DNA from: a virus
Taxonomy: Duplodnaviria; Heunggongvirae; Uroviricota; Caudoviricetes
Reading direction: 5' to 3' (one strand)
IMG/VR virus record: IMGVR_UViG_2778261296_000007
Length of the DNA stretch: 21,512 nt
The notes beneath the pieces are model-generated. The model worked only from the letters and a program-made list of their open reading frames with translations, searched no databases and was not told the DNA's origin. Position numbers and translations under genes: made by a program. This document shows positions 13,012 to 20,462 of the stretch, in pieces; position 1 is the first letter of the stretch; each line of letters starts with the position of its first letter.

Positions 13012-15495
13012 ATGTCTGGTTTTTTCCTTGATTTAACCAAGCTTTCGCCCAGTGTAAATAGCGACACAGCGATTCCACCGCGAGATATATTTACAGCTCT
13101 ACCGAGCAAAGACACCAAATTTCAATACCCTCGAGATGTGCAATCAGAGGTCTGGGAAAAATGGTATGAAGCAAGGAGAAGCCCAACCAATGTAATAAAA
13201 ATGAATACCGGAAGCGGTAAAACTTCAGTTGGGTTAATCATTCTTAAAAGCTGTATAAATGAAGGAGAAGGTCCCGCTGTATATGTTGTTCCTGACAACT
13301 ATCTAGTTGAGCAAGTGGTTTTGGAGGCTAATCAACTTGGTATACCTGTAACTCAAGATGAGAGGTCCCCCAAATTTATTGCAGGTAAAGAAATTTTAGT
13401 TACAAATATATTCAAAGTGGTTAATGGACGTTCTGCATTTGGCGTTGGAGATGATGGACAAAAAATACCAATAGGTTCTATAATAATTGACGATGCTCAC
13501 GCTTGCCTTTCTTCAATTGAAGAACAATTCTCCATTAGCATTCAAAAAAATAACCCTGCCTATGATAAATTATTCAGAATTTTTGAAAATTCACTAATGA
13601 CACAAGCTGGTGCAAAAACACTAGAGATAAAATCCGGCGATAGAAATGCTTATGTGAGAGTTCCATTTTGGAAATGGCAAGAAAGCATAAATGATATAAT
13701 GACAATCTTGTTAGAAAATAAAGACCATGATGACTTGAGTTTCAAATGGCCATTAATAAAAGACAATCTAATATTATCGAAATGCGTTGTAAGTGCTTCC
13801 AAAATAGAGATATCACCTCATTGCATACCAATCCAAATGATCCCAAGCCTATCAAACGCAAGAAGAAAAATATTCATGACAGCTACTCTTGTCGATGAAT
13901 CCATTCTAGCGAGCCACTTCGGAATAACGGATGAATCACTCTCTAATCCGATAACACCAAAAACAATTGGTGATATTGGTGATAGAATGATACTAATGCC
14001 TCAGGTTATAAACCCTAGTCTTTCTGATGTAGATATCAAAGCTATGTGCAAGGAGATATCCTCCAAACATAATGTTGTTGTAATTGTACCATCCGATTAC
14101 AGAACTAGATTTTGGCAAGATGTTGCAGACAGAATATTAGATAAAAATACAATTTATCAAGGTGTACAAGAATTAAGGACACAACATGTTGGCTTAGTAG
14201 TCCTAGTTAATAGATATGATGGTATTGATTTACCAAATACCGCATGTCGTCTATTAGTAATAGATGGACTTCCTGACGTTCGTAGACTAATAGATAAAGT
14301 CTCACAAAGCTTATTGCTTGGAAGCGAAAAAACCAAAGATGAAATTATCCAGAAAATTGAACAAGGAATGGGGCGAGGAGTGAGATCAAGCGACGACTTC
14401 TGCGGAGTGATCTTACTTGGCAAAGCATTAAATGGCGCTGTTTTCCTTGGCTCCTCCTTAGAAAGGTTTTCTCCAGCAACGAAAGCACAAATTCAACTTT
14501 CACAGCAATTGGTATCGATACTGCCGGATACAACTATTGATTCAATCAAAGGTGCTCTTGATTATTGTCTGTTACGCAATTCTGACTGGGTCTCAAAAAG
14601 CAAAGGTATATTGACTGGCTTAACATTGGAAAATAAGCAGATTGACCAGCATACTATAAACAAAAGATTGGCATATGACTTAGCATCACGAAATATGTTT
14701 CAACAAGCCGCTTTAACTCTAAAAAATGATAGTAGCACAGCTGACAAAGTTTATAAGGGTTATCTAAAAGAACATGCTGCGGAATATGTAAACTTATATG
14801 ACAAATCTGAAGCTCAGATATTGCTTCAGTCTGCATCAAACGATAACTATCGGGTATTAAAACCACTAATCGGCGTAACATATAATAGACTTAATGGTGC
14901 GGCACTTGAACAGGCCAGGGAATGTAGCTCCTATCTCAGAAGTAATTTTGAATCGGCGAATCAAGTCGTTGTGCATACTAATTCAATAATAGAAAACCTT
15001 ATTTTCTCCGAGGGCACATCGAATCCCTTCGAAGATGCTATCGAAAAAGTTGCATATTTGGTCGGTTTTCGTAGCCAACGGCCAGAAAATGATACAGGTA
15101 AAGGACCTGACAATTTATGGGCAATGGGAGAAAACAATTATCTAGTAATTGAATGCAAAAATGGAGCAACCGCAGAAAGAATAAGTAAGCATGACTGCAA
15201 TCAGTTAAATGGGTCGGGTGCATGGTTCAGAAACATGTATGATCAAACTGCTACCGCCACACCTATAATGATACATCACTCTAATATGCCTGAATATGCC
15301 GCAACACTAAACGAAGGGTCTCGAATAATGACCATAAATGATCTTGAACGTTTTAAAGCATCTATCCTCAGTTTTATCACGGCCATTTGTACAAGTGATA
15401 AACGACACGATGAGATATTTATAAGAGAACAATTGATCACATGTAAATTACGTGCATCAGACATAGTTGAAACCTATACGCGAAACCCTCGTTAA
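13012..15495 (+). CDS. Cargo protein: SF2 (DEAD/DEAH-like) helicase fused to a C-terminal PD-(D/E)xK nuclease-like domain; candidate anti-phage defence protein
   Basis: 827-aa ORF with RBS AAGAGGA 6 nt upstream. Walker A NTGSGKTS (aa 65-72), motif Ia VPDNYLVEQ, motif II IIIDDAH (aa 158-163), motif III TAT (aa 290-292), motif V-like RYDGIDLP (aa 401-408), motif VI QGMGRGVR (aa 451-458). C-terminal E675...GPD700...IE714-C-K716 fits the PD-(D/E)xK pattern. AT-rich, unlike flanking phage genes. Confidence 0.85.
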   Translation: MSGFFLDLTKLSPSVNSDTAIPPRDIFTALPSKDTKFQYPRDVQSEVWEKWYEARRSPTNVIKMNTGSGKTSVGLIILKSCINEGEGPAVYVVPDNYLVEQVVLEANQLGIPVTQDERSPKFIAGKEILVTNIFKVVNGRSAFGVGDDGQKIPIGSIIIDDAHACLSSIEEQFSISIQKNNPAYDKLFRIFENSLMTQAGAKTLEIKSGDRNAYVRVPFWKWQESINDIMTILLENKDHDDLSFKWPLIKDNLILSKCVVSASKIEISPHCIPIQMIPSLSNARRKIFMTATLVDESILASHFGITDESLSNPITPKTIGDIGDRMILMPQVINPSLSDVDIKAMCKEISSKHNVVVIVPSDYRTRFWQDVADRILDKNTIYQGVQELRTQHVGLVVLVNRYDGIDLPNTACRLLVIDGLPDVRRLIDKVSQSLLLGSEKTKDEIIQKIEQGMGRGVRSSDDFCGVILLGKALNGAVFLGSSLERFSPATKAQIQLSQQLVSILPDTTIDSIKGALDYCLLRNSDWVSKSKGILTGLTLENKQIDQHTINKRLAYDLASRNMFQQAALTLKNDSSTADKVYKGYLKEHAAEYVNLYDKSEAQILLQSASNDNYRVLKPLIGVTYNRLNGAALEQARECSSYLRSNFESANQVVVHTNSIIENLIFSEGTSNPFEDAIEKVAYLVGFRSQRPENDTGKGPDNLWAMGENNYLVIECKNGATAERISKHDCNQLNGSGAWFRNMYDQTATATPIMIHHSNMPEYAATLNEGSRIMTINDLERFKASILSFITAICTSDKRHDEIFIREQLITCKLRASDIVETYTRNPR

Positions 15496-19590: not shown

Positions 19591-19784
19591 TTCCAGACCC
19601 TCCGGCTTTTCAGAAAGGTCAGAGCCTTTTTTAACGGACTCTGTTTTTTGGTGCGGATAATGATTCCCTTGCGACCCTTCCCGTGGGTGATGGTGAAGTC
19701 AATCGCCCTGGGGCTTTCGTTACGCAATAACTGAGCAATACAACGCGGCTCATTCATAATCACAACCCCATCCACAAAAGCCAT
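19587..19784 (-). CDS. Small protein between cox and B (P2 orf78 position)
   Basis: 65-aa ORF whose stop overlaps the B start (ATGA). Its 5' end overlaps the cox 3' end by 25 nt, so the true start may be the internal Met at 19757. Confidence 0.5.
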   Translation of the reverse strand: MAFVDGVVIMNEPRCIAQLLRNESPRAIDFTITHGKGRKGIIIRTKKQSPLKKALTFLKSRRVWK

Positions 19785-20047
19785 GCATCACGCTGTTCAA
19801 CCGGTCGGTTATAAAACGCCTCACGTACAGCGCGATTAAACTCAGGAATGAAAACCCATTTTTCACCGGCACGAGCCTTCGGTTTGCAAGGATCACGCAA
19901 TTCAATAATTGGTAATTTATTTGCCTTCACCATTTCACTGACGGCTGTCTTTGGCTTCCCTAATAAATCAGCAAATTTATCCACATGAACCGCATCAAGC
20001 GGATACTGAATCACATAATTTTCAGCGTCCATATATGGTACCCTCAT
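19760..20047 (-). CDS. cox: Cox (excisionase / repressor of Pc)
   Basis: 95-aa ORF (…MDAENYVIQYPLDAVHVDKFADLLGKPKTAVSEMVKANKLPIIELRDP…), the first gene of the leftward early operon opposite C. Start could be the second Met at 20032. Confidence 0.8.
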   Translation of the reverse strand: MRVPYMDAENYVIQYPLDAVHVDKFADLLGKPKTAVSEMVKANKLPIIELRDPCKPKARAGEKWVFIPEFNRAVREAFYNRPVEQRDAWLLWMGL

Positions 20048-20168
20048 AGGATCCAGCCCTTTCTAAACCACTCAAAACCGTTTAGACGCTGGTTTATTCT
20101 CAAATCAATGGAACCTATATAGGTTCCAGTTTTGAGGGAATTTAGTCCCTATATAGGCACCATGTCAA
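20048..20168. promoter_or_regulatory. Pe/Pc divergent promoter-operator region (lysis-lysogeny switch)
   Basis: 121-bp interval between divergent cox and C. Contains palindrome GGAACCTATATAGGTTCC (20110..20127), a second CCTATATAGG copy (20148..20157) and an inverted repeat TCTAAAC-N11-GTTTAGA (20062..20086). Confidence 0.6.
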
Positions 20169-20462
20169 ATGAAATTAAGCGAAAAGATTAAGGCCTTGCG
20201 TGAGGCTGAAGGGCTAAGCCAATCAAAATTCTGTGAAATCATAGAGTTACCGCTAAGCACACTTAAAAAATATGAAGGAGGAAACTTTGAACCCGGTGGC
20301 ACAGCTTTGCTAAAAATCACTATGCATCCCACATTCCAAAAATATGCTCTATGGCTTATGACAGATAAAACCGCGCCGGACGCAGGACAAATCGCACCGG
20401 CTCTCGCGCACATTGGGCCAGAGTCAACAGAGTCCAACCACTCCGCGAAAAGGATTGGCTAA
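20169..20462 (+). CDS. C: Immunity repressor C
   Basis: 97-aa ORF with an N-terminal HTH-like segment (LSQSKFCEIIELPLSTLKKYEGG) and a C-terminal block (…QIAPALAHIGPE…) close to what I recall of P2 C. Located between the switch region and int. Confidence 0.85.
   Translation: MKLSEKIKALREAEGLSQSKFCEIIELPLSTLKKYEGGNFEPGGTALLKITMHPTFQKYALWLMTDKTAPDAGQIAPALAHIGPESTESNHSAKRIG

Follow-up and report, generated by a model that had tools for sequence, protein, structure and literature searches.

The right end of the window, by which we mean the whole stretch of 21,512 nucleotides that was analysed, is a P2-type lysis/lysogeny switch made up of cox, C and int. The gene C (20169..20462, plus strand, with its start ATG at 20169) encodes an immunity repressor of 97 aa with a helix-turn-helix, to which the Pfam family HTH_3 is assigned, and its residues 3-97 match the solved P2 C protein (2XCJ/2L49) with E = 1.9e-21 (phmmer). 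The gene cox (19760..20032, minus strand) encodes the Pc repressor and excisionase, a protein of 90 aa when read from the ATG at 20032, and its product matches Pfam Phage_Cox with E = 1e-23. The cox start is ambiguous, as an in-frame alternative at 20047 would give 95 aa; this upstream ATG is used in the L-413C record, the start at 20032 (MDAENYV...) is favoured by RefSeq (in the 273-nt version) and by homology to WPhi, and a Pc placed by homology would overlap the codons of the upstream start. With int on the plus strand from 20502, the reading frames run cox (minus), C (plus), int (plus), which is the gene order of P2, of WPhi and of the L-413C annotation.

Over the 703 bp of the cox-C segment, identity to ten distinct phage isolates is 99.3-100%, and among these are Yersinia phage L-413C, R18C, P24B2 and the 'P2' from strain T22; identity to WPhi is about 70%. 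At the protein level, C shows 100% identity with L-413C gpC, 56% with WPhi C and 43% with P2 C; for Cox the figures are 80.7% with WPhi and 45% with P2. The spacer between cox and C was found in 420 of the 5,426 complete E. coli genomes searched, as one chromosomal copy in each. The immunity type of the window is a common one, of which phages have already been sequenced; L-413C was listed beside representative P2-like phages in a 2011 study of P2-like regulatory genes, with its immunity class unstated, and its attP core is the same as that of WPhi (PMC3448106). Only 81-86% of the window has a counterpart in the closest phage genomes. An 827-aa helicase-like reading frame (13012-15495, plus strand; Pfam ResIII, DEAD and Helicase_C_2) is placed between replication gene A and the late genes, in what we take to be the P2 tin/old cargo slot, and it aligns full-length with PDC-S28, a candidate defence protein in PADLOC, at 1055 bits. 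Some relatives carry one or more extra small reading frames between the switch spacer and cox (loci L055 and L061, ~850-1050; SEN5, L008, 471-1266), so that cox is not always the first early gene; in relatives with an inserted reading frame, cox was located by tblastn.

In a consensus scan of 19900-20300, the sole sigma-70-like site was TTGACA-18-TAAATT on the minus strand (20168-20139), the predicted early promoter Pe. Its -35 hexamer TTGACA (20163..20168, minus strand) adjoins the C start codon and is followed, across an 18-nt spacer, by the -10 hexamer TAAATT (20139..20144, minus strand), from which we infer a transcription start near 20132-20133. The annotated Pe of P2 and of WPhi has this location too, its -35 lying at the C start codon; all C classes examined keep the TGTCAA(A)TG motif, and the -10 of the window is homologous to the TATATT hexamer within the annotated Pe of the WPhi record AJ245959. 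For Pc, no site in 19900-20300 reached the threshold of the promoter scan, and Pc is placed near 20012-20049 solely by alignment to the annotation of AJ245959. Some variation was seen at Pe itself: 79 of the 420 prophages have at least two spacer mismatches, and all four of those sampled (L078-L081) carry A20139G, which turns the -10 from TAAATT into TAAATC with loss of the last T of the hexamer. Prophages with this change may have a weakened early promoter and be poorly inducible.

The spacer holds two exact copies of a 10-bp core, CCTATATAGG, each within a larger dyad. Box 1 (20110..20127), the proposed operator O1, is the perfect 18-bp palindrome GGAACCTATATAGGTTCC, inside which lie the 16-bp dyad GAACCTATATAGGTTC (20111-20126) and the core (20114-20123), and it spans about +6 to +23 of the predicted Pe transcript. 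Box 2 (20145..20160), the proposed operator O2, comprises 16 bp, GTCCCTATATAGGCAC, that are nearly palindromic and enclose the second core copy (20148-20157). From centre to centre (20118.5 and 20152.5) the cores are 34 bp apart, and 11 nt separate the end of the second from the C start codon. A sequence-only reading of this DNA had described the same perfect palindrome at 20110..20127, a second core copy at 20148..20157, 34 bp away from centre to centre and ending about 10 bp before the C start, and an inverted repeat TCTAAAC-N11-GTTTAGA at 20062..20086; both boxes were found at exactly those coordinates, and the arms of the repeat are perfect. That reading had offered all of these as candidate operators for C and/or Cox, a proposal that holds once it is divided, with the boxes going to C and, as a much weaker assignment, the 7-bp repeat to a Cox/Pc-side module. 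Symmetry within the pair is 8/8 in O1 and 7/8 in O2, and the consensus of all four half-sites is G-W-N-C-C-T-A-T.

It is extremely improbable that the boxes repeat by chance. An AT-rich spacer and the frequent occurrence of TATATA-like sequences near promoters would favour such a coincidence, but 0.15 copies of CCTATATAGG with at most one mismatch would be expected in the 21.5-kb window and two were observed, exact, 34 bp apart and both in the spacer; the conservation of the boxes, their co-variation with C and their mutation in lytic derivatives, set out below, effectively refute a chance origin. A third copy was absent from the window at up to two mismatches, at which 3.8 would be expected. 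Phage 186 has additional distant C sites; extra sites of this style were sought in the window and rejected, none appearing even at up to two mismatches. An IHF site at box 1, judged by eye, was likewise rejected, AATCAA at 20103-20108 being without TTR at the needed spacing. The boxes differ from the P2 half-site GTTTAGAT (ATCTAAAC in the orientation of the window) and from the WPhi half-site GTCACCAATA.

An unbiased scan for repeated 10-mers, anchored on the conserved -35, recovers the P2 operator as ATCTAAAC, direct and 22 bp apart, and the WPhi operator as GTCACCAATA, direct and 34 bp apart at -51 and -17 (407-416 and 441-450 of the WPhi record, L002); in the window the same scan returns CCTATATAGG at -50 and -16, again 34 bp apart. 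Box 1 therefore falls within 1 bp of the promoter-distal WPhi half-site, and box 2 is the positional equivalent of the other. Box 2 lies between the -35 and -10 of Pe, box 1 a short way past the predicted start, so that the Pe -10 is bracketed. The WPhi half-sites have been described as 10-bp elements at a distance of 34 bp, one on either side of the Pe -10, an arrangement about the -10 that the P2 operators share (PMC1904268). Because they bracket the Pe -10, are equivalent in place to WPhi O1 and O2, follow the type of C and are mutated in two lytic derivatives, we assign the boxes to C, and predict from sequence comparison that the CCTATATAGG pair very probably constitutes O1 and O2 of the L-413C immunity class. 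The sequence-only reading had also suggested a distinct immunity specificity, and this stands, with boxes unlike the P2 and WPhi half-sites and a C that is 43% and 56% identical to theirs; the specificity is not new, being that of L-413C.

Co-variation was followed across 64 loci from viral contigs encoding C relatives, 59-100% identical. Each C class has its own repeat pair at the box position. A relative with an 86% identical C carries GGAACCCATATAGG and CCTATATGGGTTCC in the same place, as an inverted pair over 15 nt; relatives with a C that is 64-77% identical carry CCTAWWTAGG-type pairs, for example CCTATATAGG/CCTAAATAGG and CCCATATAGG/CCTAATTAGG; and more distant C classes have unrelated repeats there. 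The boxes of related classes are likewise near-palindromes. These loci also bear on the possibility that the boxes are sites for Cox, serving repression or autoregulation, and not for C. P2 Cox is reported to spread towards Pe at high concentration (PMC3936717), but we consider Cox sites very unlikely, since unrelated boxes occur in phages whose Cox is 96-100% identical (L047, L069, L060, L066), where they vary in step with the DNA-reading N-terminal half of C, which is 38-46% identical across box types and 86% identical within a type. The relative with the 86% identical C, for its part, retains the box type despite a 57% identical Cox and an unrelated Pc-side spacer, and WPhi Cox (81% identical) recognises a 12-nt repeat near Pc (PMC5009727). 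Judged by these alignments, box sequence tracks the C repressor type and not Cox, and it is the Pc-side module that tracks Cox.

The assignment to C draws further on isolates that may be regarded as natural mutants. Over the 703 bp compared (19760-20462; lesions elsewhere in the two genomes are possible), R18C differs from the window at 2/703 nt, G20123A in O1 and C20149A in O2, and L-413C differs at four, G19881A, G20111T (O1), A20140G and G20157T (O2); the C protein of both is identical to that of the window. R18C has been published as a virulent, lytic P2-like phage (PMC6823313), and L-413C is a lytic, clear-plaque mutant of the temperate L-413 (PMC2893161, PMC3448106). All four box changes fall at positions common to the four half-sites (G1, C4, C5), and the chance of random substitutions striking both 16-bp operators is P ~0.001 for two substitutions and ~0.006 for four. 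A20140G is also present in a prophage and therefore probably does not account for the L-413C phenotype. In WPhi, single half-site mutations leave repression in place and double mutations abolish it (PMC1904268), and one lesion per box beside an intact C, as read from the L-413C and R18C sequences, is the pattern expected of an operator-virulent phage. Yersinia phage HQ103 (L005) shows a different route to the lytic phenotype within the same immunity class, as its boxes are intact and a 7-bp deletion in C (window 20325-20331) cuts the repressor to 61 aa.

In lysogens, box 1 (20111-20127) is unchanged in 420/420 E. coli prophages, as judged by an exact 28-mer across the 39-nt box-1 segment, and 407 of the 420 match 20141-20180 exactly. 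In each of the 13 that do not, a single mismatch falls within 20153-20168, a range that includes the right half of the O2 core; in the two of them that were sampled, the mismatch is at 20162 and at 20165, in the -35 area and outside the core. Further prophage polymorphisms, at 20087, 20129, 20139 and 20140, are all outside the boxes. Among 36 IMG/VR contigs with a C at least 99% identical, the boxes are changed in the R18C genome only. We read the conservation of the boxes in lysogens as probable purifying selection.

Taken together, these observations allow a mechanism to be proposed. The genes cox (leftward) and C-int (rightward) are divergent, and their promoters would face each other, Pe firing towards cox and Pc, which is at the cox start in WPhi, firing towards C. 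One symmetric C dimer would occupy each 16-bp dyad, and the two dimers, 34 bp or about three helical turns apart, would cooperate across the -10 region and exclude or trap RNA polymerase at Pe. The shut-off of Pe would in turn maintain lysogeny as well as immunity to phages of the same class, and escape from repression would need damage to both sites. The crystal structure of P2 C is that of a symmetric dimer set for two consecutive major grooves, like proteins that bind palindromes (PMC2995052), a geometry that fits the 16-bp dyad. The model of one dimer per dyad differs from that published for P2, where each dimer uses only a single helix to read the 8-bp repeat.

Box 1 is also the centre of a loose 23+23-nt dyad (20096..20141; outer arms CTCAAA and TTTGAG), which is predicted to form a stem-loop at the 5' end of the Pe transcript and is present in the Pc leader as well. 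In nearly every C class an 8-12-bp inverted repeat of class-specific sequence is centred 42-46 nt from the -35 anchor, and the stem-loop is present at the same offset in relatives L045-L069; when the first 43 nt of the predicted early transcript were folded, a stem beginning 0-5 nt from the 5' end was found in most classes. In an RNAalifold consensus of 13 classes, 8 pairs form and 6 of these show compensatory changes, and the Pe and Pc leaders of the window fold better than shuffles (z = -2.5 and -3.8, respectively). The WPhi inverted repeat encloses O1, as TCAAAAGGT-N12-ACCTTTTGA (L002 400-429), and that of the window merges with O1. Because the stem-loop overlaps O1, box 1 would be a perfect 18-bp palindrome and box 2 not, the full symmetry of box 1 being owed in part to this overlap. 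Two of the changes in lytic derivatives, G20111T and G20123A in O1, would also weaken the hairpin. We found no description of the O1 stem-loop in the literature examined.

A class-specific stem-loop in almost every C class, compensatory changes in six of eight pairs, leaders that fold better than their shuffles and a terminator-like flag on the minus strand could together be taken to mean that the 18-bp palindrome acts at the RNA level only, either stabilising or attenuating the early transcript from its 5' end or shaping the Pc leader, with the second CCTATATAGG incidental and C bound elsewhere. We hold this to be improbable, as box 2 is without a long hairpin and is yet an exact copy, conserved with box 1 in relatives and also changed in both lytic derivatives, and as the arms of the WPhi hairpin flank the half-site, whereas mutagenesis implicates the half-site itself (PMC1904268). 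A dual role at O1, as operator and as stem-loop, is favoured. The minus-strand intrinsic terminator flagged by the scan was judged unlikely, with the stem beginning within a few nucleotides of the predicted Pe start, and is further disfavoured by the stems of relatives, which have no U-tract following them. For the stem of the dual-role reading, our best guess is that it stabilises the 5' end as a stem-loop or gives structure to the leaders where they overlap in antisense.

The inverted repeat TCTAAAC-N11-GTTTAGA (20062..20086) has its arms at 20062-20068 and 20080-20086 and can be extended to CCAGC...GCTGG over 20053-20092; with Pc placed by homology, it would span about +14 to +38 of the Pc transcript. 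Alone, it is not significant: the 7-mer arm count in the window is at chance (2 found, 1.78 expected), and when 121-nt spacers are shuffled, about 8% of them hold perfect 7-bp inverted arms around a loop of 3-15 nt. In the Pe-Pc region of WPhi, Cox recognises an imperfect direct repeat of 12 nt (PMC5009727), just downstream of Pc; its copies, CCAGTCCCTTCTAGG and CCTGTCCTTTCTAGG, lie at 353-364 and 373-384 of L002, 20 bp from start to start. The window segment 20053-20092 is in the homologous place, its first element CCCTTTCTAAAC resembles WPhi TCCCTTCTAGGT, and the outer CCAGC/GCTGG dyad is common to both, the WPhi version being a compensatory CCAGT/ACTGG. Unlike in WPhi, the second element of the window is a degenerate direct copy (5/8) that reads as an inverted one; as direct copies the elements are TTCTAAAC and GTTTAGAC, a weak match 19 bp apart, and GTTTAGAC reads as an inverted copy because TYTARA, of which TCTAAA and TTTAGA are both instances, is self-complementary. 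Most relatives have there, in place of GTTTAGAC, a direct copy of TTCTA at a distance of 20 bp. Many phages with a WPhi-type Cox have the module GATCCAGCCCTTTCTAAACC...GCTGG in common, whatever their C class, and it is absent where Cox is of another type.

On these alignments, the repeat would not be a C site and would belong to a Pc-proximal module. It is a candidate part of the Cox operator, to which we give slightly less than an even chance; that it is fortuitous is a lesser possibility, and that it is an RNA stem is rather unlikely; it may also be operator part and stem at once. Whether it has any operator role at all seems evenly poised, since it might instead form a stem in the leaders where these overlap, or have arisen fortuitously from a degenerate Cox repeat. 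Besides its frequency in shuffled spacers and the chance count of its 7-mer, two changes in a direct TYTARA copy create an inverted copy, direct TTCTA repeats 20 bp apart stand at the same place in relatives, and the arms are predicted to pair in both leaders, extended by CCAGC/GCTGG, for which the WPhi CCAGT/ACTGG is compensatory. Against this, the region is positionally homologous to the WPhi Cox repeats, the module follows the type of Cox, and arm substitutions were seen in none of the sampled prophages or isolates. In P2, the cox-box array comprises at least six 9-bp copies of TTAAA(G/C)NC(A/C) at 10-11 bp spacing over Pc. Cox-boxes are not bound by Cox of the WPhi type (PMC5009727).

The arms of the repeat agree with the P2 C half-site GTTTAGAT at 7/8 positions (PMC1904263), and the right arm (20080-20087) agrees at 8/8 in the common C20087T allele, which is carried by HQ103, FSLSP004 and several prophages. 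The remark in the sequence-only reading that nothing here matches the P2 operators is thus right for the boxes and wrong for the arms. Cross-recognition of the arms by P2 C was considered and judged improbable, the arms being inverted and 18 bp apart; P2 C, unable to bind a lone half-site, requires a direct pair at a distance of 22 bp (PMC1904263). The likeness is a curiosity.

The type of switch is ordinary and already classified, and operators of this class are predicted by the logic of P2 and WPhi; what goes beyond the routine is that the sites are palindromic and that two well-known lytic derivatives carry double-operator lesions. As of PMC1904268, C operators of P2-like phages had been located only for P2, P2 Hy dis and WPhi, and the present analysis assigns predicted operators to one of the commonest P2-like immunity types, found in ~8% of complete E. 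coli genomes. The plague-diagnostic L-413C and R18C would be double-operator (vir-type) mutants, which would explain why they are lytic despite an intact repressor; this reading bears on phage typing and on the safety of phage therapy, as a single reversion would not restore lysogeny. The boxes would also be a natural palindromic counterpart to direct-repeat recognition by P2 C and could help to settle how a symmetric dimer reads DNA. A bolder view, tentative and on balance doubtful, is that C dimers of the CCTAWWTAGG branch, to which the L-413C class belongs, bind two full palindromes and that a conserved RNA-level stem-loop accompanies O1 across nearly all P2-like classes. If this were true, the family's rule of asymmetric direct-repeat binding would not be followed in that branch, and a hitherto unrecognised RNA-level element, for 5' mRNA stabilisation or as a structure of the overlapping leaders, would be added to a switch described as consisting of two proteins.

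Among known systems, the C operators O1 and O2 of WPhi were reportedly described by Liu and Haggard-Ljungquist in 1999. They resemble the boxes in being two 10-bp elements 34 bp apart, one in the promoter spacer and one past the start, with positions that agree within 1 bp when counted from the -35 and the C start codon; the promoters of the window are predicted to face each other as in WPhi, Cox is 81% identical, and the attP core is as in L-413C (PMC3448106). However, the sequences are unrelated (GTCACCAATA in WPhi, CCTATATAGG in the window), and the WPhi sites are non-palindromic direct repeats, whereas those of the window are 16-18-bp dyads; C is only 56% identical to WPhi C, and the two are therefore heteroimmune. 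The P2 C operators, said to have been described by Ljungquist in 1984, serve a repressor of the same family and are likewise two sites that bracket the Pe -10, both of them needed for repression. They are, however, direct repeats of 8 bp without palindromic symmetry (GTTTAGAT), set 22 bp apart; the two C proteins share 43% identity, and the P2 half-site sequence recurs in the window as the arms of the Pc-side repeat and not at Pe. Non-palindromic direct repeats have been stressed as a hallmark of P2 C (PMC2995052). The boxes of the window are not of that kind, which leaves the two-site architecture unaffected; the window does have a P2 C homologue of ~100 aa, a divergent Cox with int downstream of C, and two elements in the 8-10-bp range, 22-34 bp apart, that span Pe.

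The P2 Hy dis C operator, reportedly described by Renberg-Eriksson in 2001, belongs to the same family and shares the two-site logic. Compared by description, its repeats are 8 bp long and 26 bp apart and, unlike the boxes, flank the -35 and not the -10 (PMC1904268). No P2 Hy dis sequence record was among the matches. Beyond the P2-like phages, the helix-turn-helix repressors of P22 (c2), 434 and lambda have palindromic operators. As proposed for the boxes, a dyad of 14-18 bp is there read by a symmetric dimer, and the P2 C dimer superimposes on the P22 c2-DNA complex (PMC2995052). The arrangement around the sites is unlike, as the promoters of those phages stand back to back and there are three sites, whereas in the window the promoters would be face to face, the sites are two, and Cox would have no share in the boxes.
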